Shown: positions 9,515-62,660 of the stretch, one piece after another
Layout of the letters: each line of letters starts with the position of its first letter
Numbering within the stretch: the stretch's first letter is position 1
IMG/VR virus record: IMGVR_UViG_3300045988_180913
Reading direction: 5' to 3' (one strand)
Origin: a virus
Length of the DNA stretch: 64,000 nucleotides
Position numbers and translations under genes: made by a program
The notes under the pieces: model-generated
Databases searched by the model: none
Told to the model about the DNA's origin: nothing
The model's input: only the letters and a program-made list of their open reading frames with translations

Positions 9515-10783
9515 ATGAAATTCGATATATTCTCAAAAAAACAATTAATAGTTCTGACATGGTGGAATGAAAAAAGTAAGTTCAAAGATAAAAAGGGAAT
9601 AATATGTGACGGATCTATCAGAAGTGGCAAATCGTTAAGTATGTCCCTATCTTTTATCTTTTGGGCAATGAAAAATTTCACAGGACAGCAGTTTGGTATG
9701 TCAGGTAAAACAGTAGGAGGCTTTGAAAGAAACGTAATATTTTGGTTATTACCTATATTAAAATCAAGAGGCTATAAGGTAGAATATAAAGATAATACTT
9801 TAATAGTTAAAATAAGAGATAATAGTACAAATGAAATAAAGTTAAATTACTTTTATGTATTTGGTGGTAGAGATGAAAGATCTTTTTCAATAATACAAGG
9901 TATGACAGCAGCAGGTTGGTACTTTGATGAAGTAGCTTTACAACCAAAGTCATTTGTAAATCAAGCAATAGGTAGGTGCTCAGTGAAAGGAAATAAGTTA
10001 TGGTTTAACTGTAACCCTGATATGCCAAATCATTGGTTCAAAACTGACTTCATTGATAATAAGGATAAATTAAATATGTTACATCTCCATTTTACTATGG
10101 ACGATAATCCTTCATTAGATGAAGAGATAATAAATGACTATAAAAGTAGATTTACTGGTGTATTTTATTTAAGATATATTTTAGGTCTTTGGGCATTAGC
10201 AGAAGGTATCATTTATGATATGTATAATGAAGAAATAAATACATATGAGAAAATAGATGAAAATATTAAATTAAATAGTACAAGATATTTTGCAATAGAT
10301 TATGGAACAACAAATCCATTTGTGGTATTAGATATATTTGATACCTGGGAAATTGCATATCAAGAAAATGAAATATATTATGATAGTAAAAAAACAAAAA
10401 AGAGTTTACCTGATATTGAATATTTAAGTATGATAAAAGAATTAGAAAAAAAAGAAAATATACCAGTATCAAAAATAATCATAGATCCATCAGCAGAGAG
10501 TTTAAAGGTACTACTTAGAGATAATGGTTATATAGTAAAGGATGCAAATAATTCAGTATTGGAAGGAATTAAATGTACAGGGTCTGCTTTGTGGCAAGAG
10601 AGGTATAAAATAAATAAAAGAAACTGCAAAAATACTATAAAAGAAATTGGCGGATACGTATGGGATGAGAAAGCTATAAAAAGAGGGGAAGAAAAACCTA
10701 TTAAAATAGATGATCATGCAATGGATGCAATGAGATATTTTATCAATACTATAATGAGAAGTAGAATATTAGGTAGAATGTAG
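9515..10783 (+). CDS. terL: terminase large subunit (PBSX XtmB / Terminase_3-like)
   Basis: Walker A GSIRSGKS and Walker B GWYFDEVA. C-terminal nuclease region has IIDPSA and DDHAMDAMRY. Confidence 0.9.
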   Translation: MKFDIFSKKQLIVLTWWNEKSKFKDKKGIICDGSIRSGKSLSMSLSFIFWAMKNFTGQQFGMSGKTVGGFERNVIFWLLPILKSRGYKVEYKDNTLIVKIRDNSTNEIKLNYFYVFGGRDERSFSIIQGMTAAGWYFDEVALQPKSFVNQAIGRCSVKGNKLWFNCNPDMPNHWFKTDFIDNKDKLNMLHLHFTMDDNPSLDEEIINDYKSRFTGVFYLRYILGLWALAEGIIYDMYNEEINTYEKIDENIKLNSTRYFAIDYGTTNPFVVLDIFDTWEIAYQENEIYYDSKKTKKSLPDIEYLSMIKELEKKENIPVSKIIIDPSAESLKVLLRDNGYIVKDANNSVLEGIKCTGSALWQERYKINKRNCKNTIKEIGGYVWDEKAIKRGEEKPIKIDDHAMDAMRYFINTIMRSRILGRM

Positions 10784-17368: not shown

Positions 17369-17504
17369 TGTATAAATAGAATGTATGCAATAAGATATCT
17401 GGTAACACTTGAGATAAATAAAAGATATATTGAAATTAAAAACCTTAATAAAAATAATAAAATGATTAGAAAGTAAATCTAAGTCTTGTATGAGGTATGT
17501 AAAT

Positions 17505-18533
17505 ATGAGTAAAATTGATGACTTATTATATAAAAGATGTGGAGATCCCAAAAACACATATTATTCAGAGCAAGTAATAACTCAAAATGAATATTGTGGT
17601 GTTAAAAGATGGAATGATGCTGGTTATTTAGGTGAAGGTGTTGTTGTATGGACAACAGAAAATCATAAAGGCAATTCATCAGAACATGGATGCAAAACTC
17701 ATGATAGAATATTTGATGCTGCTCCAGGTGCAACTATTATAAATGCAAGTATATCTGCAATTTATAGTAATGAAGAAATTGAAAAGTTTGAAATAATTTA
17801 CCAACCATCTCATGATTCTAATGAAAGAATAAAGTATGAGCCTGAAGAATTTATAAAAAAATTTAAAATAAAGATTATTACAAGATCTATTGGTGGAGGA
17901 ATGTTTAGTGATCCAAAATCAAGTAAAATGGGAAGATTTTGGAAAGAAATGCAAGATAAGTATAATTTAATATTTTTTAACTCTTTTGGTAATAAAGGGA
18001 ATGAGAATAAAGATGAAACCGGTGATTTAGCTATTTATGTTCAAGCTTGTCATCTGGATAATAAAGGAAAACCTGTAAGAGATTATTATTCATCAACAGG
18101 AATTTCGGATCATAATTTTATTGATTTTAGAGGATGGGATTCGGGTACTTCTTTCTCTGCTCCTTATTTAGCAGGAAAAACTGCTTTATTAATTGAAAGA
18201 TATGGTGATTTAACACAAGAAGATGTCATTCAATATTGGAAAGATCATGTAGAAGATTTGGATGATGAAGGTTATGATAAATATACAGGTTTTGGGTTAC
18301 CAATTTTAGGTGATGTAAATGAAGAATATGACTTTCCAAGCAAAGAAGGAAATAAAGGTGAAGATGAAATGAAAAAGTTTAAAGATGTACCAGAAAATGC
18401 ATGGTATAAAGAAGCTATAGATTATGTTGTTGAAAAAGGATATATGAAAGGTGTTAGTGAGGATGAATTTAAACCTGATTCACCTTTAACAAGGGCACAA
18501 TTAGCACAAGTTTTATATAATTTAGAAAAATAA
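17505..18533 (+). CDS. subtilisin-like (S8) peptidase with C-terminal SLH domain
   Basis: His motif EHGCKTH, oxyanion SFGNKG, Ser motif GTSFSAPYLAGKTALL. The C-terminus FKDVPENAWYKEAIDYVVEKGYMKGVSEDEFKPDSPLTRAQLAQVLYNL is an SLH repeat. The canonical DTG Asp position reads WTTE. Confidence 0.75.
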   Translation: MSKIDDLLYKRCGDPKNTYYSEQVITQNEYCGVKRWNDAGYLGEGVVVWTTENHKGNSSEHGCKTHDRIFDAAPGATIINASISAIYSNEEIEKFEIIYQPSHDSNERIKYEPEEFIKKFKIKIITRSIGGGMFSDPKSSKMGRFWKEMQDKYNLIFFNSFGNKGNENKDETGDLAIYVQACHLDNKGKPVRDYYSSTGISDHNFIDFRGWDSGTSFSAPYLAGKTALLIERYGDLTQEDVIQYWKDHVEDLDDEGYDKYTGFGLPILGDVNEEYDFPSKEGNKGEDEMKKFKDVPENAWYKEAIDYVVEKGYMKGVSEDEFKPDSPLTRAQLAQVLYNLEK

Positions 18534-28005: not shown

Positions 28006-28833
28006 ATGATATTATTAAATACAATAGCTGGTGATATTATTGGCTCAAAATATGAATTTAGCAATATTCATAGCAAAGAATTTGAATTATTTCAAGATGA
28101 TATGCATTATACTGATGATACAGTGTTAACTATTGCAACAATTGATGCATTGCTGGAAATAAATAAAAGATATACAGAAGAAAGTTATGAGTTTGAAAAA
28201 GATATAGATGAAAAGCTTATATCTATTTTTAAAGAAAAATATTATGAATATGGAAATAAATATAATAATATTAATTTAGCATATGGTGCAAACTTTTTAA
28301 AGTGGTTATCATTTCAATATAAAAAAGCATATCCATATAATAGTTTTGGAAATGGTTCAGCGATGAGAGTTTCACCAATTGCATGGTATTCAAAAACTTT
28401 AAAAGAAGCAAGGTTGTTAGCAAAATGTTCTGCTTTTGTAACACATAATCATACACTTGGTATAAAAGGTGCAGTTGATATTACTGAATCAATATTTAAA
28501 TTATTAAATTATAATGCAGATAAAGATGACATAATAAAGGAATGCAAATATATTGTTCCAAGTAATATTTCAAAAGTATTATTTGATGAAACTTGTGAAG
28601 GAACAATACCATATGCTTATAAATGTTTTGTTGACTCCGAATCAACTGAAGATGCTATAAGAAATGCTATAAGTTGTGGAGGGGATTCTGATACTTTAGG
28701 TATAATTACTGCTTCATTAGCTGAAGCATATTATCCAGAGGATGAAGAAATATCAAAAAATGTATTAAGATATTTGGAAAAAGAATTTATTTTAAAAATA
28801 AATGAGTTTAATAATGTTGTAGCGAAAAGGTGA
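28006..28833 (+). CDS. ADP-ribosylglycohydrolase (ARH/DraG family)
   Basis: AGDIIGSKYEF, HYTDDTVLTIA, FGNGSAMRVSPIAW and CGGDSDTLGIITASLAEAYY are the ARH family motifs. Confidence 0.85.
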   Translation: MILLNTIAGDIIGSKYEFSNIHSKEFELFQDDMHYTDDTVLTIATIDALLEINKRYTEESYEFEKDIDEKLISIFKEKYYEYGNKYNNINLAYGANFLKWLSFQYKKAYPYNSFGNGSAMRVSPIAWYSKTLKEARLLAKCSAFVTHNHTLGIKGAVDITESIFKLLNYNADKDDIIKECKYIVPSNISKVLFDETCEGTIPYAYKCFVDSESTEDAIRNAISCGGDSDTLGIITASLAEAYYPEDEEISKNVLRYLEKEFILKINEFNNVVAKR

Positions 28834-28837
28834 TGGT

Positions 28838-29560
28838 ATGCTAAATGATATTGTAAAAGTATTTGATGGTGGAGAAGGATCAGGCCATTTTAATCATGTA
28901 GGAATACCAAAGCATAAAGGTGGCTCTGCAAGAAGTGGAAAATTTAAAAGTGAGCAAAATAAACAATTTAAAGAAGGTCATATAGAAACAAAAGGTAAAA
29001 GTAGAAAAGCAAAGATAAGAAAAAGAATAAAAGGTGCAACAAGTGATGAAGTTGAAAGGTATTCAAAGTCATTAGAAGCATACACAGGTATATTTTATGA
29101 TGATATAAAGAAAGCTTATAGAAACAAGTATTCAGGTAAAAAAGTTGATAAAGGTTTTGAAAAATATTCAAATGATTTGGATGATTTTATTTATAGGTCA
29201 GAAAAATATGAAGGCACAATATATAGAGGATTAAGTCTTACAGAAAAGGATGCTTCAGAAATTATACAAAATTTAAAAAAAGGTAAGACAATGGATATGC
29301 AAGGCATATCAAGTTGGAGTTCAAATAGAAATATTTCTATTAGCTTTGCAGATACAAATGATAAAGAAAAAGAAATATGTTTATTATTTAATGTCGAGAA
29401 TAAATCAGGAACTTCAATAAGAGAATTATCTGAATTTCCAATAGAAGATGAAGTTCTGCATCCAACAACATCAAGGTATATTTTAAAGGATAAAAATTTT
29501 AAAGTAAAAACTTTATCGAGCGGAAAAAGATTAATAGAAGTAAATTTAAAAGAGGTATAA
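28838..29560 (+). CDS. ADP-ribosyltransferase (R-S-E, C3/VIP2 exoenzyme type) with cargo leader and linker
   Basis: MLNDIVKVFDGGEGSGHFNHVGIPKHKGGSA leader and linker. R in TIYRGL, STS-like ISSWSS, and E.E in FPIEDEVL. Confidence 0.8.
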   Translation: MLNDIVKVFDGGEGSGHFNHVGIPKHKGGSARSGKFKSEQNKQFKEGHIETKGKSRKAKIRKRIKGATSDEVERYSKSLEAYTGIFYDDIKKAYRNKYSGKKVDKGFEKYSNDLDDFIYRSEKYEGTIYRGLSLTEKDASEIIQNLKKGKTMDMQGISSWSSNRNISISFADTNDKEKEICLLFNVENKSGTSIRELSEFPIEDEVLHPTTSRYILKDKNFKVKTLSSGKRLIEVNLKEV

Positions 29561-50215: not shown

Positions 50216-50665
50216 ATGAGATTATGGCATGTATATTTAATTAAAGTTTTGCCAATGAAACAGCTTGTTTCACAGTGGCGTGAGTGTTGTTGTATAGCTA
50301 AGAATATAGCAAACAAAGGTACACCAAATCATTTACTTGTAAATAAAGTATTAGAGTATCATTATAATAATTTTAATCACTATACAATGTTAGTGGTAAA
50401 TGAAATGAAAAATAGAGGGTATAAAGTAAGAGAAAATTCTATAAGTAATTTTATTGACAATCTTATTAGTGGAATTGATAAGTTTAATAATAGTAAGCCA
50501 ACAATGGTGTTATTTGAAGGTTGGCATAATGAAAGGTATTTAAAGCAGTGTTATTATAATTTGCAAGAAAAATATGATTGTGGAGGCATATCAAAAGAAG
50601 AGTGGATGAAGGTTTATAAATATGTGAATTTTGCTTTAGATTTAAGATTAGATGATGAAAAATAA
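50216..50665 (+). CDS. pyrimidine-dimer DNA glycosylase-like protein (DenV-related, TIGR02328-type)
   Basis: MRLWHVYLIKVLPMKQLVSQWRECCCIAKNI matches the MRLWH..Li..LP...L..QwRE signature. Confidence 0.65.
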   Translation: MRLWHVYLIKVLPMKQLVSQWRECCCIAKNIANKGTPNHLLVNKVLEYHYNNFNHYTMLVVNEMKNRGYKVRENSISNFIDNLISGIDKFNNSKPTMVLFEGWHNERYLKQCYYNLQEKYDCGGISKEEWMKVYKYVNFALDLRLDDEK

Positions 50666-50714: not shown

Positions 50715-50830
50715 ATAATTTAAAGTTTTAGTTTTGAGCTTAGAAGGAAATAGTCAAAATATGTAATATAAGTATGTAATAACTATGTCCCATAGAAGCT
50801 CTAATAAAGCTTCTATGGGACTTTTTATTT
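50715..50830 (+). ncRNA. ORF-less ~115-nt transcript (sRNA or terminator-gated leader of the replication module)
   Basis: Bounded by P10 and the strong terminator at 50787-50830. Only ATG-TAA is present. Shares AAAATATGTAA with the 45557 unit. Confidence 0.5.
50787..50830 (+). terminator. rho-independent terminator
   Basis: Perfect 14-bp stem GTCCCATAGAAGCT (50787-800) / AGCTTCTATGGGAC (50808-21), followed by TTTTTATTT. Confidence 0.85.
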
Positions 50831-51722: not shown

Positions 51723-52652
51723 ATGAGCAAACTTTTAAAAGTATTAGATTATTATGGCATTCAATATGATGAAAAAATAATTTGTCCTTTTCATGGTGAT
51801 GTAAATCCAAGTTTAAAAATTGATCTTGAAAAAGATTTTTGGTTTTGTTTTGGTTGCCAAGAAGGTGGAGATGCATTTAAATTTTATAAAAAAATGCAAA
51901 TGCTAAAAGGTGAAACAAATGAATTAAAAATGTTGATGTCATATAATAAGTTAGTAAGAGATGAGCTAAAAAAAGAAGAAAATGGTAAAATAATTAGGAA
52001 AGGAGTTCAAAAGAAAGATCTTGCTTATTATAGGCAATGTTTATTGGAAGCAAAAGACTATTATGGCGGACTAAAAAAAGTAGATTGGACAAATGAAGAT
52101 AATGAAGCACTTGATTATATGATATATAGAGGGTATAGGAAAAGTACTTTAAATTCATTTGGTGCAAAAAATACATATAAAGATGTGTATCAAATAATTT
52201 TTCCAATTTTAGACAATGGAAAGTTTAAAGGATGGGTGTGTAGAACTTTTGATCCTGTTGTAGCAAAGCAAAGAAAATATCTTTATAATAAAGGTTTTAG
52301 GAGAAGAACAACATTAGCTGGAAATTATAAGGATTCAGAAGTTGTAATGCTTGTTGAAGGATATTTTGATATGATGAAAGCTAAGCAATTAGGAATAAAA
52401 AAAGTTGCTGCAATACTTGGTTGGAAAATTACAGATAGACAAATTGTTAAGTTAAAATCTCAAGGTGTTAAAAAAATAATATCAGCACTTGATAATGATG
52501 AGTGTGGCATAAAAGGGACAAGGCATTTAAAAAGATACTTTGATGTTGTAAGATTCCCATATCCAAAGAATATAAAAGATATGGGTGATATGACAAGTAA
52601 AGAAATGTATAAAATAAAAAATAATTTTAATGAATTACAGGAGGTATTGTAA
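51723..52652 (+). CDS. DNA primase (CHC2 zinc finger plus Toprim)
   Basis: CPFHGDVNPSLKIDLEKDFWFCFGCQEGGDAFKF. Toprim motifs VMLVEGYFDMM and SALDNDECG. Confidence 0.85.
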   Translation: MSKLLKVLDYYGIQYDEKIICPFHGDVNPSLKIDLEKDFWFCFGCQEGGDAFKFYKKMQMLKGETNELKMLMSYNKLVRDELKKEENGKIIRKGVQKKDLAYYRQCLLEAKDYYGGLKKVDWTNEDNEALDYMIYRGYRKSTLNSFGAKNTYKDVYQIIFPILDNGKFKGWVCRTFDPVVAKQRKYLYNKGFRRRTTLAGNYKDSEVVMLVEGYFDMMKAKQLGIKKVAAILGWKITDRQIVKLKSQGVKKIISALDNDECGIKGTRHLKRYFDVVRFPYPKNIKDMGDMTSKEMYKIKNNFNELQEVL

Positions 52653-53515
52653 TGGGCATTATCGACTCTATTAAAACAAGCGTAGCTAAGTCTGGAAGCA
52701 ATAAAGAAAAGATACTTTATGTAAGAAATGATAGTAAGGTGAGAGTAAGATTTTTGCAAGAATTTAGTGAAGGCTATCAATTTACTTTTCATGATTCATT
52801 TGAAAAAGGTGTAAATACAATATGCCAAGAGGAGCTTGGAAAAACTTGTCCATTATGTGGAGAAGAAAGTTTAAGAACAAGAATATTATATGCTTGGTCA
52901 ATATATAATTTTGATACAAAGAGGGTTGAAATAATGCTATTTGCAGTAAACAATTGCACCCCTGTCTCAAATCTTTTATCAATGTATGAAAATTATGGAA
53001 CAATTATGGATAGAGATTATGTTTTGTCAAAGTCAGGTAAGCAACAAAATACAACTTATTCAGTAATACCTATGGACAAGGAGAAGTTTAGGAATACAAA
53101 AGCAAAGCCATATACAAAGTCTGCAGTTCTTAAGATTTTGGATAAAGCTTTTGCATTACCTGATGAATATGCTAAAGATCAAGATTTTGATGATATTGAT
53201 GAAGAAGACTTTGATGAAGAAGAAGTAAAGAAAAGTAGAAAGAAAAAATTTAAGGAACTTGATGAAGATATGCCAGGTGTTGATGATAAAAAGAAGAAAA
53301 GTAAGACAAAGAAAAATTATATGACAATAGAAGATATGGAAGAGTTTTTAGATGAAAATGATGTTGACGAAGATGACTTTTTTGAATATCATGAAGTAGA
53401 TAGTTTTGAAGATTTTGGTAAAATAACAAAGAAAAAATTTATGTCATATTATAATGAGTACATTGAAGAAATGGAAAATGAATATGAAGAAGACTATGAT
53501 GAGGATGATGAATAG
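52652..53515 (+). CDS. single-stranded DNA-binding protein-like (gp32-style Zn cluster, acidic tail)
   Basis: CQEELGKTCPLCGEE cluster, an OB-like N-half, and a very acidic C-terminus ending EEDYDEDDE. Lies between primase and nucleotide genes. Confidence 0.5.
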   Translation: MGIIDSIKTSVAKSGSNKEKILYVRNDSKVRVRFLQEFSEGYQFTFHDSFEKGVNTICQEELGKTCPLCGEESLRTRILYAWSIYNFDTKRVEIMLFAVNNCTPVSNLLSMYENYGTIMDRDYVLSKSGKQQNTTYSVIPMDKEKFRNTKAKPYTKSAVLKILDKAFALPDEYAKDQDFDDIDEEDFDEEEVKKSRKKKFKELDEDMPGVDDKKKKSKTKKNYMTIEDMEEFLDENDVDEDDFFEYHEVDSFEDFGKITKKKFMSYYNEYIEEMENEYEEDYDEDDE

Positions 53516-53859
53516 TGAAAAGCCTTTATAAAAAACAAATTGAATTTCAAAACAATTTATTAAGAAATGAAAAATATGATATTGAAAATGTAGTACTTCC
53601 AGAAGATAATATATATCTTTTTAAATATCATATGCTTCAATTATTGTCTGAACTTGGTGAAGTTCTTGAATCTGACAAGAGGTGGAAAAATTATAGAAAT
53701 AAAAAGTTTGACTTTAAAGAGAAGAGAAATGAAATTGCAGATTGCTTTATAGTTCTTATGAATGTAGCAATGAGTTCAGGCATGACATATGAAGAAATAT
53801 ATAAAAGCATAGAAGAAAAGATAGATGAAAATTTTGAAAGGGTAAAGAATGAGGGGTAA
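53515..53859 (+). CDS. dimeric dUTPase-like / all-alpha dNTP pyrophosphatase
   Basis: GTG start coupled to the upstream TAG. QIEFQNNL...HMLQLLSELGEVLESDKRWKNYR...EIADCFIVLMNVA is like the dUTPase_2/MazG superfamily. Confidence 0.6.
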   Translation: MKSLYKKQIEFQNNLLRNEKYDIENVVLPEDNIYLFKYHMLQLLSELGEVLESDKRWKNYRNKKFDFKEKRNEIADCFIVLMNVAMSSGMTYEEIYKSIEEKIDENFERVKNEG

Positions 53860-53861
53860 AT

Positions 53862-54293
53862 ATGTTTATTATTTTTGAAGGTGCTGATAAGACAGGTAAA
53901 AGTACTTTAATAAAAAAATTAAATGAAGTTACTGATTATAAGCACTGGGTTTTAGACAGAGGAATTATTTCATCAATTGTATATAATGATATATACAAAA
54001 GAAAAAATGAAAAGATGTATTTTAAATATCTTGAAAAAATAAAAGAAATGAATCCTTTGATTATTTTTACATATTCAAGCATAGAAAACATAGAAGGTAG
54101 ACTAAATAACTCAAAAGAAGAATTACCAAATGTTCAAAGAGAGTATGGTCTTGAAGGAATACAATTTAAATTTTTAGACTATATTCAAAAAAGCGGTTTA
54201 AGATATGTAATTGTATCAACAAATGAAACAATAGAAGAAAATTTAGATTACATTTTAAAGGTTATAGAAGAGGAAGAGTTAAATGAAGAATAA
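53862..54293 (+). CDS. dNMP (thymidylate-kinase-like) kinase
   Basis: P-loop IIFEGADKTGKSTL, as in Tmk (I.FEG.D.sGKsT). Short, at 143 aa. Confidence 0.6.
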   Translation: MFIIFEGADKTGKSTLIKKLNEVTDYKHWVLDRGIISSIVYNDIYKRKNEKMYFKYLEKIKEMNPLIIFTYSSIENIEGRLNNSKEELPNVQREYGLEGIQFKFLDYIQKSGLRYVIVSTNETIEENLDYILKVIEEEELNEE

Positions 54294-55440
54294 AAATGAA
54301 AATCTTACATTTGTATTTGATGTAGATGATACTATATGTCATACAAGTAATAGAGAGTATAAGAATTCGGTTCCAGATGTAGAAGTCATTGAGAAAATAA
54401 ATAAATTATATGATTTAGGAAATAAAATAGTATTATACACTTCAAGAGGTATGGTATCTTGTGATGGTGATATAGAAAAAGCTATTGAAAAAAATGAAAG
54501 CATATTAAAAGAATGGCTTAAAGAAAATGATGTTAAATATAGTGAATTAATTTTTGGAAAGCCTATAGCAGATTTTTACATTGATGATAGATGCATGAAT
54601 GTGAAAGGATTTAAAGAATCAAAGTTTGAAGAGTTTAATACAGGTAAAAGTGGTAAAAAAGTATATAGGTTTGGTGAATATGTTTTAAAGTTTGCAGACT
54701 TTTATAAAAGAACAAGGATGAAAAATTTTGAAAAGTATAAACCTAATGATATAAGATCACCAAAGATAATATCAAGCTTAAATAATAAAATATATATAGA
54801 GTATGTTGATGGTAAACCTCTAATTGATCTGGTAGCCAATGGTAATTATGATTTGTTTTCAAAGTTATTTTTTAAGGATATAAATAAGTTAAAAAATAAA
54901 GATAATTTTACAATTGGAGTTGACATTGTAGATCTATTTCATAAATTAGATTTGAATGTAAATAATGATAAAGAAGAATACTATGGATTAAATGATGTTA
55001 AGCTTGTTGACAAAGCAAAAAGATTAATAAGATCAGTTTCAGGTACATTATACGAAAATAAGTCAATGTCCCATGGTGATATGATAATGAGCAACATATT
55101 ATATTCAAAAGATGGACTTATATATCTTGACTCAGAATTTAATATGTTTTGTAGTACCTACATAATGGATTTAGCAAAAATGTATATGTCATTTTTAGGT
55201 TACGAAAATATTTTTGGCATATCAGAAAAGAAGATTAGTAAGTCTTATATAAAAAGATATTATAAAGATGTAAAAGTTAGATATGGTAAAAAAGTAGCTT
55301 TTGCAATGGTAGCTTTAACATATCATTATATTGTAAGACTTATAAGATATAATAAAGATCAATTGCAAAATGTAAATAAATTGATTGCAATTCTGGAGGA
55401 ATATAATGGAAAACAAATTAAAGAGCTCCTTGGAAAATAA
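54283..55440 (+). CDS. bifunctional HAD-family phosphatase / APH-ChoK-fold kinase
   Basis: HAD motifs FVFDVDDTICHT (DxDxT), LYTSRG and GKPIADFYIDDR. Kinase motifs SHGDMIMSNILY (HGDxxxxN) and IYLDSEF. Confidence 0.7.
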   Translation: MKNKNENLTFVFDVDDTICHTSNREYKNSVPDVEVIEKINKLYDLGNKIVLYTSRGMVSCDGDIEKAIEKNESILKEWLKENDVKYSELIFGKPIADFYIDDRCMNVKGFKESKFEEFNTGKSGKKVYRFGEYVLKFADFYKRTRMKNFEKYKPNDIRSPKIISSLNNKIYIEYVDGKPLIDLVANGNYDLFSKLFFKDINKLKNKDNFTIGVDIVDLFHKLDLNVNNDKEEYYGLNDVKLVDKAKRLIRSVSGTLYENKSMSHGDMIMSNILYSKDGLIYLDSEFNMFCSTYIMDLAKMYMSFLGYENIFGISEKKISKSYIKRYYKDVKVRYGKKVAFAMVALTYHYIVRLIRYNKDQLQNVNKLIAILEEYNGKQIKELLGK

Positions 55441-55849
55441 AAAAGTAGGATTTACATCAGTTGTAGGTGACTTACTACATGCAGGACATGTTGTAATGTT
55501 AGATGAATGTAAAATGTATTGTGACTACTTATATGTAGGAATAATTATAGATCCAACAAAAGATAGGTCATTTAAGAATAAACCAATTCAATCTTCTTTT
55601 GAAAGATATTGTCAAGTAGTATCACATAGGTCAGTCGATGAAGTAATACCTCTTGATGGAGAAGATGACTTATTGTTAGCTTTAAAAACATTACCAATAA
55701 ACATGAGATTTGTAGGGGAAGATTACAAAGGAAAAGATTTCACCGGCAAAAAAGAATGTATTGATCTTGGTATTGATATCATTTACAATAAGAGAAAACA
55801 TGGGCTTAGTTCAAATGAGCTTAGAGAAAGGATTGAAGCAAATGCATAA
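55406..55849 (+). CDS. HxGH nucleotidyltransferase (cytidylyltransferase-like; TagD / RfaE-domain-II type)
   Basis: GGAGGAA RBS. GFTSVVGDLLHAGHVVML (HxGH), VDEVIPL, VGEDYKGKDFTGKKE and KHGLSSNELRERI (the RxxGxST-like end). Confidence 0.75.
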   Translation: MENKLKSSLENKKVGFTSVVGDLLHAGHVVMLDECKMYCDYLYVGIIIDPTKDRSFKNKPIQSSFERYCQVVSHRSVDEVIPLDGEDDLLLALKTLPINMRFVGEDYKGKDFTGKKECIDLGIDIIYNKRKHGLSSNELRERIEANA

Positions 55850-56819
55850 AAAAGTATTTGTTGGAAAAGCAGGTCAAAAATTAATTTTTGATAGAGATAG
55901 TAAAGAGGCAAAAAGAAACAATATGAATGGTGGGTTAGATGCATATTTGTTTTTTGATTTGTTATTCAAAAATTTTAGTGATGTAGAGTTTTATATGTTA
56001 GGTGATTGTGATAGTGGAATTAAAAAATATAGTAATGTAACGTATGTTGACACAATAGAAGCATTAAATGGTAATGAGTTTGATTGTGGTTTGATATTTG
56101 CAGGTGTTTATAATAAAGATGATAGATTATGTAAATATTTAACTAAGAAGAATAAAACAAAATGGTATATGTTTAGTACAGATCCAAGATGTTTAATGCA
56201 AAATGTACAACTTAATAAATATCCTGAAAAAATATATGCTTTGTCAAATAGTTGTGTTGTATACTTACAATCTTCTGAAAATGCAAAATTATTTAGAACA
56301 CATTATCTTCCTTTAGAGAGATTAATGATAATGAGTAATATAAAACCACCAAAAATAGATAAAGATCTTTCAGTGGTCATATCTACATCCAGTAGTGATA
56401 TATATGATAGGGAAAAGTATATCATAAATTATGTAAAAATAGCAACAAGTTTTTTTGGTGAAAACAAAGTACAGGTATATGGCAGGTTAAAAGAGGAAAA
56501 TATTAAAAAATTAGGTAAACAATATAAAGGTGTTTTAGATTATGATGAATTTATAAAAGTTTTTAGAAGAGCAAAATATACTTTATGTATGCCATCAAAT
56601 GAAGGGTGGGTAACATCAAAATATATAGAAGCTTTAAATAATGATGTTGTACCATTTTTTCATAAAGATTATGGTATAGAATTAATTAAAAATGTAAAAA
56701 ATATTGAATATGAAGAAGACTTTGAAAAATGTTTAAAAAGTATAAAAAATCAACTAAATTATGATGAAAATTATAAAGGTGAAGAAATAATAAAAGAAAT
56801 AGAAAAAATATTAAAATAA
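55842..56819 (+). CDS. GT-B-like transferase resembling T4 DNA beta-glucosyltransferase
   Basis: The ORF 55761 frame with ATG 55842 overlaps the upstream stop. KWYMFSTDPR is compared with T4 BGT KIYYLFTDIR, and WVTSKYIEALNNDVV with FITLRVWETMASDAV. T4 sequences are recalled from memory. Confidence 0.45.
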   Translation: MHKKVFVGKAGQKLIFDRDSKEAKRNNMNGGLDAYLFFDLLFKNFSDVEFYMLGDCDSGIKKYSNVTYVDTIEALNGNEFDCGLIFAGVYNKDDRLCKYLTKKNKTKWYMFSTDPRCLMQNVQLNKYPEKIYALSNSCVVYLQSSENAKLFRTHYLPLERLMIMSNIKPPKIDKDLSVVISTSSSDIYDREKYIINYVKIATSFFGENKVQVYGRLKEENIKKLGKQYKGVLDYDEFIKVFRRAKYTLCMPSNEGWVTSKYIEALNNDVVPFFHKDYGIELIKNVKNIEYEEDFEKCLKSIKNQLNYDENYKGEEIIKEIEKILK

Positions 56820-56831
56820 GGAGGAAAAAAT

Positions 56832-57773
56832 ATGTATATTGAAGTAAATAGTGTTGCTGAAATATATAAGACTTTAGGTAGAGAGCTATTGATGAATGGT
56901 GAAAAAGTCTATCCAAAAGGTATTGAAACAAAAGAAATATTAGCTCCAAAAATTAGATTATTAAATCCTAAAAATAATCTTGCATATAATGAAAGTAGAA
57001 AATTTAATCTAATTTATGCTTTAGTAGAAAGCTTAATGTTATTTAATGAAACAAAAGAAGTAAAATATTTTAGTAAATTTAATAATAATATTATAAATTA
57101 TTCTGACAATGGAAAATCTTTATATGGAGCATATGGTAAAAGAATAGCTCCAATGATAAAAAAAATTATAAACAAACTTAAAAATGATAAAGATTCAAGA
57201 CAAGCTGTATTATCAATATATAATAATGATTTTTATATAGATACAAAAGATGTACCATGTACATTAAGCATTCAATTTATAGTAAGAAATGAAAAGTTGA
57301 ATGCAATAACAACAATGAGAAGTAATGATATAATCTGGGGATTACCATATGATATATTTATGTTTACAAATTTACAACAAGTTATAGCAAATACTTTAAA
57401 TCTTAAATTAGGATGGTATGAGCATAATCCCACAAGTATGCATGTATATTCAAATCATTACAATATGCTTAAAGAAATGTCAAACACTTGTGAGCCAATT
57501 GAAACAAATAATGATTTAGATTATTCATCATTTAAGTATCAAGCATGTAAATATTTGTTGCCAATTGTATTTGATGATTTGGATAATGATACAAGTGAAA
57601 ATGAATTAGAAAATATATGTAAGATGTTATATGATAAGCAAGAACTTGAGTATCTTATATTGATAATGAAAGAGATAATGTATAGAAGAAAAAAATATGA
57701 CTCTATAATTTGGAATATAAAAACACCTGAATGGTCTAAAAAATTTACAAAGAGGTGGAAAGAAAATGCTTGA
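56832..57773 (+). CDS. thymidylate-synthase-family pyrimidine hydroxymethylase-like enzyme (Asp at base-specificity position)
   Basis: DSRQAVLSIY, catalytic VPCT, MRSNDIIWGLPYD and SMHVYSNHY parallel ThyA and T4 gp42. The residue after G-L-P-Y is D (as in gp42 D179), not N (ThyA N177). Confidence 0.7.
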   Translation: MYIEVNSVAEIYKTLGRELLMNGEKVYPKGIETKEILAPKIRLLNPKNNLAYNESRKFNLIYALVESLMLFNETKEVKYFSKFNNNIINYSDNGKSLYGAYGKRIAPMIKKIINKLKNDKDSRQAVLSIYNNDFYIDTKDVPCTLSIQFIVRNEKLNAITTMRSNDIIWGLPYDIFMFTNLQQVIANTLNLKLGWYEHNPTSMHVYSNHYNMLKEMSNTCEPIETNNDLDYSSFKYQACKYLLPIVFDDLDNDTSENELENICKMLYDKQELEYLILIMKEIMYRRKKYDSIIWNIKTPEWSKKFTKRWKENA

Positions 57774-60540
57774 TTTGCATAGGCATACAGAATTTAGTAC
57801 ATTTGATGGATTTGGTAAAACAAGTGAAGTTGCTAAATATGCAAAAGAAATAGGATATGATGCTCTTGGCATATCAGACCATGGCAATATGTCAGGTTTA
57901 GTTACTCATTATTTTTCGTGTAAAGAAAATGGTATAAAGCCAATAATGGGTTGTGAAGTTTATTTTATGCCAAAGTTTAAACAAACAAGAACATCATATC
58001 ATTTATGTTTATATGTAAAAAATTTAAAAGGGTATAGAGTTCTTAATGAATTGGTAACAAAAGCAAATTTTGATAATTTTTATTATAAAGCAATAATTGA
58101 CTTTGATATGCTTGAAAAAAATCATGAAGGATTGATTTGCACATCAGCTTGTATAGGTGGAGCTATTTCAACTTTAATTTCAAAAGGAAAAGATGATGTA
58201 GCATATAATGTTGCAAAAAGATTTAAAGATGTTTTTGGTGATGACTATTATATAGAGATTCAACCTTATAAGTTGACAGAAAAAGGGCTACAGGAAGCTG
58301 TAAATATTAAATTAATGCAGTTGGCAAAAAAATTAAAAATAAAATGTATATTGACATCAGATTCACATTATATAAATAAAGATGATTTTGATACATATTT
58401 AAAAATGCATGATATTGCAGGTCATAAAGATTTTGGTGCTCAATATGAAGAAAGATATATGCCAACAAAAAAAGAATTAATAAAAAGATTTGTGAAAATG
58501 CATGGTGATGATAGTGAATTATTTGCAGATGAAATAGAGGCAAAAAAATTTGCAAAGACATGCATAAAAAATCTCGATGAAATATCTTCAAAAGTAGATG
58601 ATGAAATTCTTGAAAAATTACCATTAGCTTTACCTGTTTTTAATGAAAATATAAATAGTACAAAATTATTAAAATTAAATATAATTAAAGGTTTAAAGAA
58701 AAGAGGAAAGTATAATAAACAATATCTTGATAGATGTAAAGAAGAATTTGAAGTAATAAAGTATCATGGTTTTGAAGATTATTTTTTAATGGTTCAAGAT
58801 TATGTGCAATATGCAAGAGACTCTGGTATTGAGGTTGGACCAGGAAGAGGGTCAGTTTGTAATAGTTTAGTTGCTTATGCTCTTGGCATTACAGATGTGG
58901 ATAGTATAATTTTTGATTTAGATTTTAGAAGATTTTTGAGAAAAGATAAGAAAAAATTTCCAGATATTGATATGGACTTTGAAACAAGCAGAAGAGGAGA
59001 GGTCATTGAATATCTTGTAAATAAGTATGAAAGTAAAGCAGCAAGAATATGTTCATATGGATTATACAAAGTAGATAATTTATTAAATGATTTATTCAAA
59101 ATTTGTGGATTAAAACTTGCTGATAAAGATGATCCTGAAAAAAGTGAAAAAGATAAAACAATTATATCGATTCAAAAAGCAATAAAGAATAAAGTAAAAG
59201 AATATATAGATGAAGAAACATCTTCATTTAATTATGATGAAGCTCAATATGATGAAGAAATAAAATATTATAACAACAAATATGATGATATTATAAAACA
59301 TTTTAGTAAGCTATATAAAAAAGTAAGATTCTTTGGTACTCATGCAGCTGGTGTTGCAATCTCAGGATCAAACATATTAAATTATACCTCAATAGTAAGA
59401 AGAGCAAAAGATATGTACACAACTACATATGATCTTGTTGATATTGAAAATATTAATGTAATTAAATTTGATATGCTTGGTCTTAGAACAATGAGTATTA
59501 TGAAAGAGTTAAGAGATATAACTGATAGTGATCATTATTTTAATTATGATTTGCTAAATGATGAAAAAATATATGAAGAATTTGGAAAAGCAAATACAGA
59601 TGGTATTTTTCAATTTGAAGCAAAAGGTGCAAAAAATATACTAAAAGAAATTGAATGTGATTGCTATCAAGATGTAATTGCCGCAAGTGCATTAAATAGA
59701 CCTGGTCCATTATCATTAGGTATGGTGGAAGAATATGCAAATGAAAAGAAAAATGTAAGAAATGGTATAAAAGAAAAAAATCATAAAGATAATATATTTT
59801 TTCAATATGCAGATGATACTTATGGTACATTCGTTTATCAAGAGCAGATCATGAAAGTATGCACTGAACTTGGTGGAATGACATGGGCTGAGGCTGATAA
59901 GGTAATGAAATTTTTAAAATCAGGCTCAGGCATGACAGAAAAAGCACTTGAAATAAAAATGCAAGAAGAAGAAAAGCTTACAAATAAATTTGTTGAAGGT
60001 GCAAGCAAAAAAGGAATAAAAGAAAAAGAAGCAAGAGAAATTTTTAATAAACTTTTAGTATATTCATTTAATAAAGGTCATGCTGTTGGATATGCATTGA
60101 TTTCAATAGAACAAATGTTTTACAAAATTTATTATAATACACAATTTTGGTATGTTACATTAAAGTATGCAAATGAAAAAGATGTACCAAGATTGAGTTC
60201 AAAAGCTGTAAAAGATGGTTGTGTTATTTTACTTCCTCATGTAAATGGAGCAGCATATCATAAGATAACAAAAATAGATGGAGATGTTTGCATAAGAGAA
60301 GGAACTTCCACAATAAAAAATGTCGGTTTAAAAGCTGCTCAATATATAGAAGAAGAAAGAAACAAAAATGGTAAATTTAAAGACTATGATGATTTTTATG
60401 ATAGAATGGAACCATATAGAAGAGTTGTAAACAAAAGAGTTTTAGAAGCATTAAAAGAAAGTGGAGCATTAGAGTTTGATAAAAAAATATATTTTGGTAG
60501 ATGTCAAAAATATAATAGTGCTCTATATGGTAGGGGGTAG
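57766..60540 (+). CDS. dnaE: DNA polymerase III alpha-like replicase (DnaE type, PHP domain)
   Basis: PHP motifs LDLHRHTEFSTFDG, ISDHGNM, GCEVY and TSDSHY. Palm motifs FPDIDMDF, HAAGVAI and KFDMLGLRT. 924 aa. Confidence 0.9.
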   Translation: MLDLHRHTEFSTFDGFGKTSEVAKYAKEIGYDALGISDHGNMSGLVTHYFSCKENGIKPIMGCEVYFMPKFKQTRTSYHLCLYVKNLKGYRVLNELVTKANFDNFYYKAIIDFDMLEKNHEGLICTSACIGGAISTLISKGKDDVAYNVAKRFKDVFGDDYYIEIQPYKLTEKGLQEAVNIKLMQLAKKLKIKCILTSDSHYINKDDFDTYLKMHDIAGHKDFGAQYEERYMPTKKELIKRFVKMHGDDSELFADEIEAKKFAKTCIKNLDEISSKVDDEILEKLPLALPVFNENINSTKLLKLNIIKGLKKRGKYNKQYLDRCKEEFEVIKYHGFEDYFLMVQDYVQYARDSGIEVGPGRGSVCNSLVAYALGITDVDSIIFDLDFRRFLRKDKKKFPDIDMDFETSRRGEVIEYLVNKYESKAARICSYGLYKVDNLLNDLFKICGLKLADKDDPEKSEKDKTIISIQKAIKNKVKEYIDEETSSFNYDEAQYDEEIKYYNNKYDDIIKHFSKLYKKVRFFGTHAAGVAISGSNILNYTSIVRRAKDMYTTTYDLVDIENINVIKFDMLGLRTMSIMKELRDITDSDHYFNYDLLNDEKIYEEFGKANTDGIFQFEAKGAKNILKEIECDCYQDVIAASALNRPGPLSLGMVEEYANEKKNVRNGIKEKNHKDNIFFQYADDTYGTFVYQEQIMKVCTELGGMTWAEADKVMKFLKSGSGMTEKALEIKMQEEEKLTNKFVEGASKKGIKEKEAREIFNKLLVYSFNKGHAVGYALISIEQMFYKIYYNTQFWYVTLKYANEKDVPRLSSKAVKDGCVILLPHVNGAAYHKITKIDGDVCIREGTSTIKNVGLKAAQYIEEERNKNGKFKDYDDFYDRMEPYRRVVNKRVLEALKESGALEFDKKIYFGRCQKYNSALYGRG

Positions 60541-61862: not shown

Positions 61863-62660
61863 ATGAGTTTTAATGACAATTTAAGAAAAGCAAAAAATGG
61901 AAGTTTAAATGATAAAAGTATTAATGATATGATAATAAAGCAAAAGTTTTCAAAATTATTTGTATTGATGAGAAATGCAAGACATCTTGATGAAAAAAGA
62001 CAAGGTTTACATGCATCAGCAATTATTGATTCAGATAATCATTTTTGTTTAAGAGAACAGGTTCTTTCTTTATTATTTGAAATGGATCAAGGGGAAGAGT
62101 TGCCTATAAAAGCTTTACAAATATTTGCAGCAGGAACATCAATACATGAAAAATGGCAAAATATGATTGAAAAATTATCAGGTGAAAAAGGCAATAGTAT
62201 TAAGTTAATAAAAAATGAAGCAAGAAGTTTTAATGAAAAATATGAAATTTATTATACACCCGATAGTATAGTGGAAATTGATGGTATAACATATATAATG
62301 GAGTATAAGTCAATGAATACTTATGCATATCAATCAGCAATAAAATCAATTAATCCACATCCGAGTGCAAGAAAACAAATACAACTTTACATGTTTTTAA
62401 CAGGTATTGAAAATGGTATCATATTAATAGAAGACAAGAATAGTCAAGAATTTATGACATATAGAGTAAAGTTTAATTATCATGAAGTTCTTCCATATAT
62501 TTCAAGATTGATTGATGTACAAGAAGCAAAAGAAGAATTTTTAGATTCAGGGGATTTACCTCAAAGAATTTGTAAAAATGCAAAAGCAAAAAGAGCTTGT
62601 GAATGTTCAATGAAAAGTGCATGTTTTAATTTGAAGAAATGTAAAAGGATAGATCAATGA
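61863..62660 (+). CDS. PD-(D/E)XK exonuclease, Cas4/RecB-like with Cys cluster
   Basis: GLHASAI, N-terminal Cys in HFCLREQ, YTPDSIV...IMEYKS (D...E.K), QIQLY, and C-terminal CKNAKAKRACECSMKSAC. Confidence 0.65.
   Translation: MSFNDNLRKAKNGSLNDKSINDMIIKQKFSKLFVLMRNARHLDEKRQGLHASAIIDSDNHFCLREQVLSLLFEMDQGEELPIKALQIFAAGTSIHEKWQNMIEKLSGEKGNSIKLIKNEARSFNEKYEIYYTPDSIVEIDGITYIMEYKSMNTYAYQSAIKSINPHPSARKQIQLYMFLTGIENGIILIEDKNSQEFMTYRVKFNYHEVLPYISRLIDVQEAKEEFLDSGDLPQRICKNAKAKRACECSMKSACFNLKKCKRIDQ

Follow-up and report, generated by a model that had tools for sequence, protein, structure and literature searches.

Gene content and layout of the cassette

We analysed a 64,000-nucleotide stretch of viral DNA (IMG/VR virus record IMGVR_UViG_3300045988_180913; the whole stretch is called the window below), which carries a cassette of six tightly packed open reading frames (ORFs), g1 to g6, on the + strand at 53515-57773, directly 5' of a dnaE gene (Table 1). 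An earlier note made from the letters of the sequence, hereafter the original prediction, had read these genes as a candidate pathway for cytosine hypermodification. The six consecutive genes that it placed 5' of dnaE were recovered as ORFs with exactly the same boundaries, all on the + strand. Its description of them as translationally coupled holds for most junctions, with overlaps of 11 nt (g2/g3), 35 nt (g3/g4) and 8 nt (g4/g5), and not for all, given gaps of 2 nt between g1 and g2 and of 12 nt between g5 and g6; g6 in turn overlaps dnaE by 8 nt. The GTG start codon of g1 shares bases with the stop codon of the preceding gene (TAGTG), the ATG of g4 lies 7 nt 3' of a GGAGG sequence, and the ATG of g5 is preceded by AAAGGA.

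Table 1 Coordinates in the window of the cassette genes, of the two domains of g3 and of the adjoining polymerase gene
Feature	Coordinates	Strand	Description
g1	53515..53859	+	All-alpha MazG/dUTPase_2-type NTP pyrophosphatase, predicted dCTPase
g2	53862..54293	+	Short (143 aa) Tmk-like P-loop kinase, predicted 5-hydroxymethyl-dCMP kinase
g3, whole	54283..55440	+	HAD phosphatase-APH kinase fusion
g3, N-terminal domain	54283..54642	+	EcbF/BcbF-type ('capsule biosynthesis phosphatase') HAD phosphatase domain, about aa 1-120, homologous to RB69 gp51/AfhF
g3, C-terminal domain	54643..55440	+	About aa 121-385, APH/choline-kinase fold, predicted anomeric (C1) sugar-phosphate kinase
g4	55406..55849	+	HxGH cytidylyltransferase-like enzyme, predicted sugar-1-phosphate nucleotidylyltransferase
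g5	55842..56819	+	GT-B enzyme, remote homologue of T4 DNA beta-glucosyltransferase, predicted 5-hydroxymethylcytosine-DNA glycosyltransferase
g6	56832..57773	+	Thymidylate-synthase family, predicted dCMP hydroxymethylase (5-hydroxymethyl-dCMP synthase)
dnaE	57766..60540	+	DnaE-type DNA polymerase, source annotation 'DNA polymerase-3 subunit alpha'; context gene

The G+C content is 27.8% in the window and 24.9% in the cassette, and nearly all window genes lie on the + strand. A strong terminator-like hairpin is located at 50787-50821, and no terminator-like site was found on the + strand from there to position 62000. The cassette is thus part of a single long replication operon, in which a primase and a conserved acidic protein precede the six genes, and DnaE and RecA come after them. 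A scan for promoters was uninformative (101 matches against 93 expected).

The gene order is conserved in divergent phages

Scanning IMG/VR with the family of the HAD-kinase protein encoded by g3 yielded 80 loci, which we classified by phmmer. Nine of them (L001, L008, L009, L018, L019, L025, L028, L032 and L061), designated type A, have the same order as the window, in which the primase is followed further on by the genes for the MazG-like protein, the Tmk-like kinase, the HAD-kinase, the nucleotidyltransferase, the glycosyltransferase (GT), the thymidylate synthase (TS) homologue, DnaE and RecA. Since this order is kept in loci that are divergent, with identities to the window of 25-37% for g3, g5 and g6, 47-52% for DnaE and 65-76% for g4, the arrangement is not due to chance. 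It was found in at least 8 divergent phage lineages, cultured phages among them. In type A loci the cassette genes lie between the primase and DnaE/RecA, and they co-vary with the TS homologue in 8 lineages.

The closest cultured relatives are the Agathobaculum phages AB434P2 and AB434P3 (OP172633/OP172634), in which MazG, Tmk-like, HAD-kinase, nucleotidyltransferase, GT and TS genes are followed by one extra gene, DnaE and RecA, with identities to the window of 52% for DnaE, 75% for g4, 37% for g3 and 32% for g5. Their cassettes are annotated as hypothetical proteins and a 'deoxyuridylate hydroxymethyltransferase', and their TS homologue (220 aa) lacks the C-terminal extension of g6. The literature searched contained no report on the DNA chemistry of these two phages.

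Predicted enzymes for the synthesis of 5-hydroxymethyl-dCMP

The product of g1 matches Pfam dUTPase_2 (E = 3.8e-6, 27.7 bits against a curated cut-off of 22.9) and a PHROG for NTP pyrophosphohydrolase, and it can be aligned to the dCTPase gp56 of phage T4 by BLASTP (E = 6e-8, 31% identity over 88 aa); an equivalent gene was found in every type A locus. These matches suggest that g1 is a dCTPase, analogous and remotely homologous to gp56, and a role as dUTPase would also be possible. The second gene matches Pfam Thymidylate_kin (E = 3.9e-7, 30.4 bits against a cut-off of 27) and PHROG 761, thymidylate kinase (8e-13), as well as TIGR00041 (3.7e-8), there with a score far under the cut-off of that model; in view of this and of its short length, its LID/acceptor site may be incomplete. 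Its P-loop reads GADKTGKST, and an equivalent ORF occupies the matching position in all type A loci. We predict that g2 is a kinase for 5-hydroxymethyl-dCMP (5hm-dCMP). Searches of the PDB with the sequences of g1 and g2 returned nothing useful.

The membership of g6 in the TS family is clear from its match to Pfam Thymidylat_synt (PF00303, E = 9.7e-26, 90.9 bits against a cut-off of 24.3), and its best PDB match is the CMP hydroxymethylase MilA (3.4e-22). We aligned g6 with E. coli ThyA, T4 gp42, RB69 gp48 and phage relatives, and give residues in E. coli ThyA numbering. C146, E58, Y94, R126, R166, S167, H207 and Y209 of ThyA are all conserved in g6. At position 177, which is Asn in ThyA, g6 carries Asp (in GLPYD), as do all type A homologues, T4 gp42 and RB69 gp48, and at position 143 it carries Asp in place of Leu (in KDVPC). 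It keeps Asp169 (in RSND), which among the aligned sequences is replaced by Asn in RB69 gp48 alone (RSQN). According to Lee et al. 2026 (PMC13326640), the N177D exchange makes dCMP the substrate in place of dUMP, an acidic side chain at 143, which affects water access, goes along with a product other than a methyl group, and D169N is diagnostic of the flavin-dependent 5-hydroxy-dCMP synthases found in RB69-type phages (RB69 gp48, DLP3 gp80). The pattern C146/D143/D169/D177 of g6 is that of T4 gp42, and is common to all seven other type A homologues and to the enzyme of Enterococcus phage Planchet. Because of this agreement with gp42, the product of g6 is predicted from the alignment to be 5hm-dCMP, and not dTMP, 5-methyl-dCMP or 5-hydroxy-dCMP.

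A glycosyltransferase related to T4 beta-glucosyltransferase

The sole GT of the window, g5, is almost devoid of annotation at the sequence level: Glyco_trans_1_2 was its single Pfam match (0.017), a sequence search of the PDB gave no match, and the pairwise BLASTP comparison with T4 beta-glucosyltransferase (beta-GT) was not significant (E = 0.12). A model built by AlphaFold2 (AF2) with 45 homologues from an exhaustive search has a predicted local distance difference test score (pLDDT) of 93.9 and a predicted template modelling score (pTM) of 0.91, and adopts the GT-B fold with two Rossmann domains. The top Foldseek match of this model in the PDB is T4 DNA beta-GT (1bgu, E = 2e-7, template modelling score 0.51), followed by GT4 enzymes of the BshA type, T4 alpha-GT and the glycosyltransferase of phage HY126. 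Comparison of the family profile of g5 with T4 beta-GT by hhalign extends over the full length (86%, E = 4.9e-6, 289 columns), and places four family invariants on beta-GT residues: D114 on D100, R190 on R195, K260 on R269, with Lys for Arg, and E263 on E272. We take Asp100 of beta-GT to be the catalytic base, and Arg195, Arg269 and Glu272 to be the residues that bind the UDP nucleotide. From the modelled fold and these alignments, g5 is predicted to be a DNA glycosyltransferase of the T4 beta-GT kind (GT-B, CAZy GT63-like), acting on 5-hydroxymethylcytosine (5hmC).

The predicted donor module encoded by g3 and g4

The first 120 residues of g3 match two HAD structures in the PDB, 9iqw ('capsule biosynthesis protein', E = 4.5e-18) and 1xpj (6.6e-16), as well as TIGR01689 (1.5e-18), and are 41% identical to RB69 gp51 (E = 3e-22). 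The remainder of the protein was modelled with AF2 (pLDDT 88.9) as an APH/choline-kinase fold, for which Foldseek finds ethanolamine and choline kinases and many aminoglycoside phosphotransferases (E = 1e-8 to 1e-6). With the RB69 gp52 kinase, BLASTP gave no significant match to g3, and the comparison of the kinase family profile by hhalign gave 95.5% (E = 1.6e-8), with the catalytic loop aligned. Both domains should be catalytically active, because the HAD motifs (D13, D15, T53, K93, D101 and D102) and the kinase motifs (GxS, K136, H264-x-D266-x4-N271 and D283) are invariant among the 29 g3 homologues aligned. A search of bacterial genomes for cellular homologues of the HAD-kinase found full-length relatives only on phage-like contigs binned with metagenome-assembled genomes (MAGs) of the Clostridia type.

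The g4 product matches Pfam CTP_transf_like (1.7e-9), and its best NCBIfam match is rfaE_dom_II, that is, domain II of HldE, a heptose-1-phosphate adenylyltransferase (TIGR02199, 2.8e-15), with TagD second (4e-12); the score of 56.4 bits against TIGR02199 compares with an equivalog cut-off of 181.5, and this is still the top model for g4 and its orthologues. In the PDB it matches TagD (1coz, 4.6e-9). It is also the most conserved gene of the cassette: g4 is 65-76% identical in window-like loci and 53-81% identical in the loci of a second type described below, compared with 47-52% for DnaE and 25-37% for its pathway partners. This degree of sequence conservation points to an unusually strong constraint on this one gene or to its recent spread.

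A sugar-phosphate isomerase (GmhA/KdsD, SIS) was found neither in a Pfam scan of 36 window ORFs nor by phmmer searches of all window ORFs with RB69 gp55 and E. coli GmhA, which returned nothing below E = 0.79. The phage must therefore obtain the starting sugar phosphate from its host.

The donor pair as a probable mobile module

The HAD-kinase and the nucleotidyltransferase also travel without the rest of the cassette. In about 50 loci, designated type B, the pair is kept, with nucleotidyltransferases 53-81% identical to g4, and is followed by a TET-associated glycosyltransferase (TAGT, PF20691) and by a radical-SAM protein about 430 aa long, usually together with ParB-like genes and sometimes with an S-adenosylmethionine synthetase; no TS homologue was detected in type B loci. 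This context, exemplified by L006 (9430-14319), and not that of the window, is the commonest one for the pair (further loci of this type are L010, L011, L017, L020-L027, L029-L031, L033-L038, L040-L060, L062-L064, L088, L089 and L091-L093). Further arrangements are triple fusions of NTP_transferase, HAD and kinase, among others in MAGs of giant viruses, and a phage-like contig from a bacterial assembly (L090) in which the donor pair occurs with a TS homologue and a longer GT. In its distribution the pair thus resembles a mobile unit that is combined with different base-modifying front ends, and it plugs into at least three ways of making or exploiting a modifiable base: the TS route of the window, the TAGT/radical-SAM route, and the methyltransferase/TET route reported by Pyle et al.

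One type A locus, L018, contains at 9536-10579, between the nucleotidyltransferase and GT genes, a gene for an NAD-dependent sugar-nucleotide epimerase/dehydratase (PF01370, E = 4e-52). The presence of such an enzyme inside the module implies that the product of g4 is an NDP-sugar, and the sugar may differ between lineages.

A prevalent gut phage with a probable clostridial host

The sole near-identical GenBank record is an unannotated 10-kb contig from human faecal samples. Exact copies of the proteins fall into 90%-identity clusters of 92-414 sequences, single members of which occur on up to about 250 contigs. Since the longest contigs with exact copies measure 63-66 kb, about the length of the window, the window covers essentially the whole genome of this prevalent gut phage. 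At 17490-18533 it encodes a protein that has an S-layer-homology domain in its C-terminal part (E = 2e-12) and partially matches subtilase (Peptidase_S8), which suggests that the host possesses an S-layer and secondary cell-wall polymers. Together with the clostridial hosts of the relatives, this protein indicates a clostridial host of the Gram-positive type, which would probably be without the heptose of lipopolysaccharide (LPS).

Comparison with described systems

The pre-replicative logic of the cassette is that of T4, which carries glucosyl-5hmC: g1 resembles gp56, g6 has the active-site signature of gp42 and g5 resembles beta-GT. T4, however, draws on host UDP-glucose and has no genes for donor synthesis, whereas the window encodes a donor module of its own; the dNMP kinase is Tmk-like in the window and gp1 in T4, the polymerase is of the DnaE type in the window and of family B in T4, and identities between window and T4 proteins are merely 13-31%.

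For the donor module, the nearest precedent is contig 53 of Pyle, Lund, O'Toole and Saleh (bioRxiv 10.1101/2023.12.21.572611), a metaviromic cluster reconstituted in E. coli, in which three proteins, namely a bifunctional HAD-APH enzyme, a cytidylyltransferase and a T4 beta-GT-like GT-B enzyme, were all needed to convert 5hmC to its mono-heptosyl (5-HepmC, 449 u) and di-heptosyl (5-di-HepmC, 641 u) forms. Its three-gene architecture and families are those of the window (HAD-APH of the TIGR01689 type, CTP_transf_like/TIGR02199, GT-B), and TIGR01689 and TIGR02199, the best matches of g3 and g4, are the models with which these authors searched for such genes (10.1101/2023.12.21.572611). The two systems differ in how 5hmC arises, which in contig 53 happens after replication through a C5-methyltransferase and a TET-like dioxygenase, and in the window would happen at the nucleotide level through the TS homologue, the dCTPase and the kinase. 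They also differ in the transferase: GT53 of contig 53 is a BshA-like enzyme (GT4, retaining) of 429 aa and g5 a beta-GT-like enzyme of 325 aa, and owing to this difference in size the two are probably not orthologous. In bulk, Pyle et al. noted that GT-B matches often lie beside TS homologues, and that APH phosphotransferases occur in such neighbourhoods (10.1101/2023.12.21.572611).

A further set of relatives is provided by the Afh clusters of RB69, DLP3 and HY126, which like the window combine a dCTPase, a Tmk-like kinase, a GT-B enzyme, a TS homologue, a 1xpj-like HAD and an APH-like kinase next to the DNA polymerase. In these phages, the APH-like kinase acts on C1 of arabinose-5-phosphate, the 1xpj-like HAD removes the 5-phosphate, and a nucleotidyltransferase forms UDP-arabinose (PMC13326640), so that kinase, phosphatase and nucleotidyltransferase follow each other as in the route proposed for the window. 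The original prediction had alluded to these phages as carrying arabinosylated hydroxymethylcytosine by means of different enzymes. Neither part of this holds, since the HAD (41% identity) and the kinase (hhalign 95.5%) of RB69-type phages are homologous to g3, and the base that they modify is 5-hydroxycytosine and not hydroxymethylcytosine (PMC13326640). The differences lie elsewhere: the Afh TS homologue has D169N and hydroxylates dCMP in a flavin-dependent manner, whereas g6 keeps D169; the Afh nucleotidyltransferase is MurU/RmlA-like and fused to the kinase, whereas g4 is an HxGH enzyme and the kinase of the window is fused to the HAD; and the Afh clusters encode an arabinose-5-phosphate isomerase, which was not found in the window. 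RB69 gp53, the MurU/RmlA-type NTP_transferase, had no match in the window either. A cluster of the RB69 type was also seen at 5586-9046 of L096, a 120-kb contig of a Candidatus Izemoplasma sp. MAG (JASFZA010000007.1), with a SIS isomerase, a nucleotidyltransferase/kinase fusion, a HAD and a TS homologue that matches RB69 gp48 at E = 3e-78; it would carry the genes for arabinosylation of 5-hydroxycytosine far beyond the hosts of Straboviridae.

Among low-GC Gram-positive siphophages, Enterococcus phages VPE25 and VFW have been known since 2016 to contain glycosylated cytosine (PMC4999554). In these phages and their relatives (Denvervirus, e.g. Planchet), a cluster beside DnaE encodes a nucleotide kinase, a TS/hydroxymethylase with the signature D143/D169/D177, a dUTPase-like protein, a small 1xpj-like HAD and GTs, one of which is homologous to g5 (E = 3.7e-16). 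The cluster differs from the cassette in its three GTs and its stand-alone HAD; it lacks a HAD-APH fusion, and an HxGH nucleotidyltransferase was not detected. In L002 (4586-6558, Planchet PLANC_63/62) and in L066-L081, this stand-alone homologue of the g3 HAD (E = 5e-25) is annotated 'polynucleotide kinase', and its gene always adjoins that of a large 'glycosyltransferase' of about 540 aa. The Denvervirus phages with glycosylated cytosine may thus also process a sugar phosphate themselves.

The bacterial ADP-heptose pathway (GmhA, HldE, GmhB) has in common with the window a C1 kinase, a phosphatase for the distal phosphate and a nucleotidyltransferase, and HldE domain II is the enzyme nearest to g4. 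In contrast to the window, with its kinase of the APH fold, its HAD of the EcbF/BcbF type and no GmhA found, the kinase of HldE domain I is of the ribokinase type.

A proposed two-armed pathway to glycosylated 5-hydroxymethylcytosine

We consider it likely that the six genes form a two-armed pathway which replaces the cytosine of the phage DNA with glycosylated 5hmC. In the first arm, g1 would hydrolyse dCTP to dCMP, g6 would convert dCMP, methylene-tetrahydrofolate and water to 5hm-dCMP, and g2 would phosphorylate this to the diphosphate, from which the NDP kinase of the host would make 5hm-dCTP for incorporation by the adjacent phage DnaE. In the second arm, the APH-fold kinase of g3 would phosphorylate a sugar phosphate of the host at C1, the HAD domain would remove the distal phosphate to leave the sugar-1-phosphate, and g4 would join this to an NTP to give an NDP-sugar. 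After replication, g5 would transfer the sugar to the hydroxymethyl group of 5hmC in duplex DNA. The scheme builds on observed gene order, folds, catalytic residues, homologies, conservation and synteny, and we infer all of its substrates and products from T4, RB69/HY126 and contig 53; the order of kinase before phosphatase is chosen by analogy with HldE/GmhB and AfhE/AfhF. The likely role of the modification is protection from restriction and other DNA-targeting defences.

The mechanistic part of the original prediction withstood every in-silico test of this analysis. Profile searches (g1, g2, g4 and g6) and matches to PDB entries or structures (g3 and g5) returned every family that it had proposed for the six proteins, including a GT-B fold for g5 with T4 beta-GT as the top match. 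Its T-even-like 5hmC logic is supported in silico by the dCMP-hydroxymethylase residues of g6 and by the alignment of the catalytic Asp of g5 with that of T4 beta-GT, and its proposal that g3 and g4 supply a phage-made donor agrees with the requirement for a trio of the same architecture in the formation of heptosyl-5hmC (10.1101/2023.12.21.572611). Where it had left the choice between an unusual sugar and a phospho-alcohol, the sugar is much the more likely, and the intact HAD and the sugar-type GT-B enzyme speak against the phospho-alcohol.

Alternative explanations

The identity of the sugar is the less certain part of this scheme. Heptose is the most probable candidate, since heptosyl-5hmC is what a module with this architecture produces in E. 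coli, and by this analogy we favour it tentatively. With the same architecture, the phage might instead start from a pentose-5-phosphate (ribose-5-phosphate or arabinose-5-phosphate) or a hexose-6-phosphate, and thereby obtain pentosyl- or hexosyl-5hmC. This would suit the homology of the g3 HAD and kinase to AfhF/AfhE-type enzymes acting on arabinofuranose phosphates, the naming of the TIGR01689 HAD family after capsule loci of the ribose/ribitol type, the failure to find GmhA among the window ORFs, the dissimilarity of g5 to the heptosyl-transferring GT53, and a host that is probably a Gram-positive clostridial bacterium without LPS heptose. We nevertheless regard it as doubtful, since g4 and its orthologues score best against heptose-1-phosphate adenylyltransferase, the 53-81% identity of g4 over all module contexts suggests a single substrate, an arabinose-5-phosphate isomerase was not found in the window, and the one module with this architecture that has been tested selected heptose in E. 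coli, where ribose-5-phosphate and arabinose-5-phosphate are present too. It is likewise conceivable, and in our view rather unlikely, that the 5hmC of this phage bears a sugar not yet seen on DNA, which an HxGH enzyme would activate as an ADP- or CDP-sugar and a beta-GT-like enzyme would transfer, in a host without the LPS heptose pathway. If this were true, one of the more commonly assembled phages of the human gut would contain a novel DNA hypermodification, and its transferase would be the first in the beta-GT lineage of DNA glycosyltransferases for which a donor other than a UDP-sugar is shown.

Three further explanations depart from glycosylated 5hmC altogether, and all are improbable. 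In one, g3 would be a choline, ethanolamine or glycerol kinase, g4 would form a CDP-alcohol (Kennedy/TagD-like), and g5 would move the phospho-alcohol to 5hmC. Ethanolamine and choline kinases are indeed the top structural matches of the g3 kinase, some family members match Pfam Choline_kinase, and the PDB matches of g4 are TagD and ethanolamine-phosphate cytidylyltransferase. In a Kennedy-type route, however, the HAD phosphatase that is joined to the kinase, strictly conserved and catalytically intact, would be without a function; the matches of g5 are GT-B enzymes that transfer sugars, with no TagF-type enzyme among the 50 PDB matches listed; the L018 module holds a sugar-nucleotide epimerase/dehydratase; and the tested module of the same architecture gave heptose, so that we judge this route very unlikely. 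Slightly less probable still is a pathway of the RB69 type, with g6 as a flavin-dependent 5-hydroxy-dCMP synthase and DNA containing arabinosylated or otherwise glycosylated 5-hydroxycytosine. The RB69/DLP3 clusters are similar in gene content, with a Tmk-like kinase, a GT-B enzyme, a TS homologue, a 1xpj-like HAD and an APH-like kinase, and the HAD identity is 41%. The exchange D169N found in all tested 5-hydroxy-dCMP synthases is nonetheless absent, and g6 and all its type A homologues keep Asp169; no arabinose-5-phosphate isomerase was found in the window, and g4 belongs to a different superfamily from the MurU-like nucleotidyltransferase of RB69. We therefore reject the 5-hydroxycytosine reading on account of the retained D169. 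The least probable of all is that the DNA is not modified, g6 being an ordinary thymidylate synthase and g3-g5 serving to remodel a glycan or teichoic acid of the host surface, for example in superinfection exclusion. Phage-encoded GTs for surface glycans exist, and public annotations list a thymidylate synthase, a capsule biosynthesis phosphatase and a glycerol-3-phosphate cytidylyltransferase. Yet g6 has Asp and not Asn at 177, and Asp and not Leu at 143, so it is not a dUMP methylase, and the reading as an ordinary thymidylate synthase is rejected on the basis of N177D and L143D. Against surface remodelling also stand the location of the genes between primase and DnaE/RecA, their co-variation with the TS homologue in 8 lineages, and the best structural match of g5, which is a DNA glucosyltransferase whose catalytic Asp is conserved.

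Several observations weigh against the two-armed pathway to glycosylated 5hmC, or against heptose as its sugar. The pathway is known from genes alone in this phage and in its type A relatives, and contig 53 was likened to the window by architecture and family assignments. In the first arm, g2 is unusually short (143 aa) and its substrate a guess; g6 has Ile at the position of Trp80, a folate contact that is Trp in ThyA, T4 gp42 and the other type A enzymes, an exchange confined to this lineage; and g6 carries an unexplained C-terminal extension of about 95 aa (residues 215-313, window 57476-57773), which is lineage-specific, with no relative in any other locus. In the second arm, g4 scores under the curated cut-offs of both HldE domain II and TagD, and g5 (325 aa, beta-GT-like) differs in GT type from the heptosyl-transferring GT53 (429 aa, BshA-like). 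With no isomerase in the window, the precursor must be supplied by the host, and this low-GC host is not known to have heptose-7-phosphate available.

Novelty and implications

The novelty claimed in the original prediction was overstated. It had known of no such gene combination in a low-GC Gram-positive phage, yet the combination is present, unannotated, in the Agathobaculum phages AB434P2 and AB434P3, and glycosylated cytosine in Enterococcus phages dates back to 2016 (PMC4999554). Precedents have been described for all components and steps: the first arm and the GT lineage have theirs in T4, the second arm in contig 53 and the Afh pathway, and cytosine glycosylation in phages of Gram-positive hosts in VPE25/VFW. 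What is new is the pairing of a HAD-APH/HxGH donor module with a T4-style pre-replicative route to 5hmC in a prevalent low-GC gut phage. In the literature searched, we found no description of the six-gene cassette, that is, of the TS route paired with the HAD-APH/HxGH module and a short beta-GT-like enzyme, nor any description of the cassette in the Agathobaculum-phage lineage or in this abundant gut phage. We thus regard the pathway as a sound prediction for a common gut phage, which can be tested directly and would not surprise a specialist in phage DNA hypermodification; the cultured relatives AB434P2 and AB434P3 are what makes such a test possible. If the cytosines are fully replaced by glycosylated 5hmC, this would affect the preparation of virome libraries, base-calling in nanopore sequencing, manipulation by restriction enzymes or CRISPR, and innate immune sensing of the phage DNA.

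Other features of the window and related loci

The conserved acidic protein that precedes the cassette (52652-53515, 287 aa) contains a CPLCGE motif and has a very acidic C-terminal half, and it had no Pfam or NCBIfam match. An ORF of similar size (266-287 aa) lies directly 5' of the MazG-like gene in those type A loci that have a long enough flank, the likeness being one of size and position alone. This protein may be a single-strand-binding protein. Just 5' of the replication operon, at 50216-50665, the window encodes a pyrimidine-dimer DNA glycosylase of the T4 endonuclease V family (PF03013, E = 3e-18).

Two relatives of g3 have an unusual reading frame. The HAD-kinase genes of L013 (8001-9050 of IMGVR_UViG_3300031555_003801, 188 kb) and L014 contain five in-frame TAG codons and no other stops, and their products align over residues 8-367 of g3; to judge from the sequence, these phages apparently read TAG as a sense codon.

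Elsewhere in the window, an ADP-ribosylglycohydrolase (28006-28833, PF03747, E = 6e-26) directly precedes a protein that weakly matches ADP-ribosyltransferases (ART/exoenzyme, 28838-29560), and this writer/eraser-like pair (28006-29560) adjoins structural genes. Two tRNA genes, tRNA-Gln(TTG) and tRNA-Met(CAT), are located at 667-741 and 848-923.

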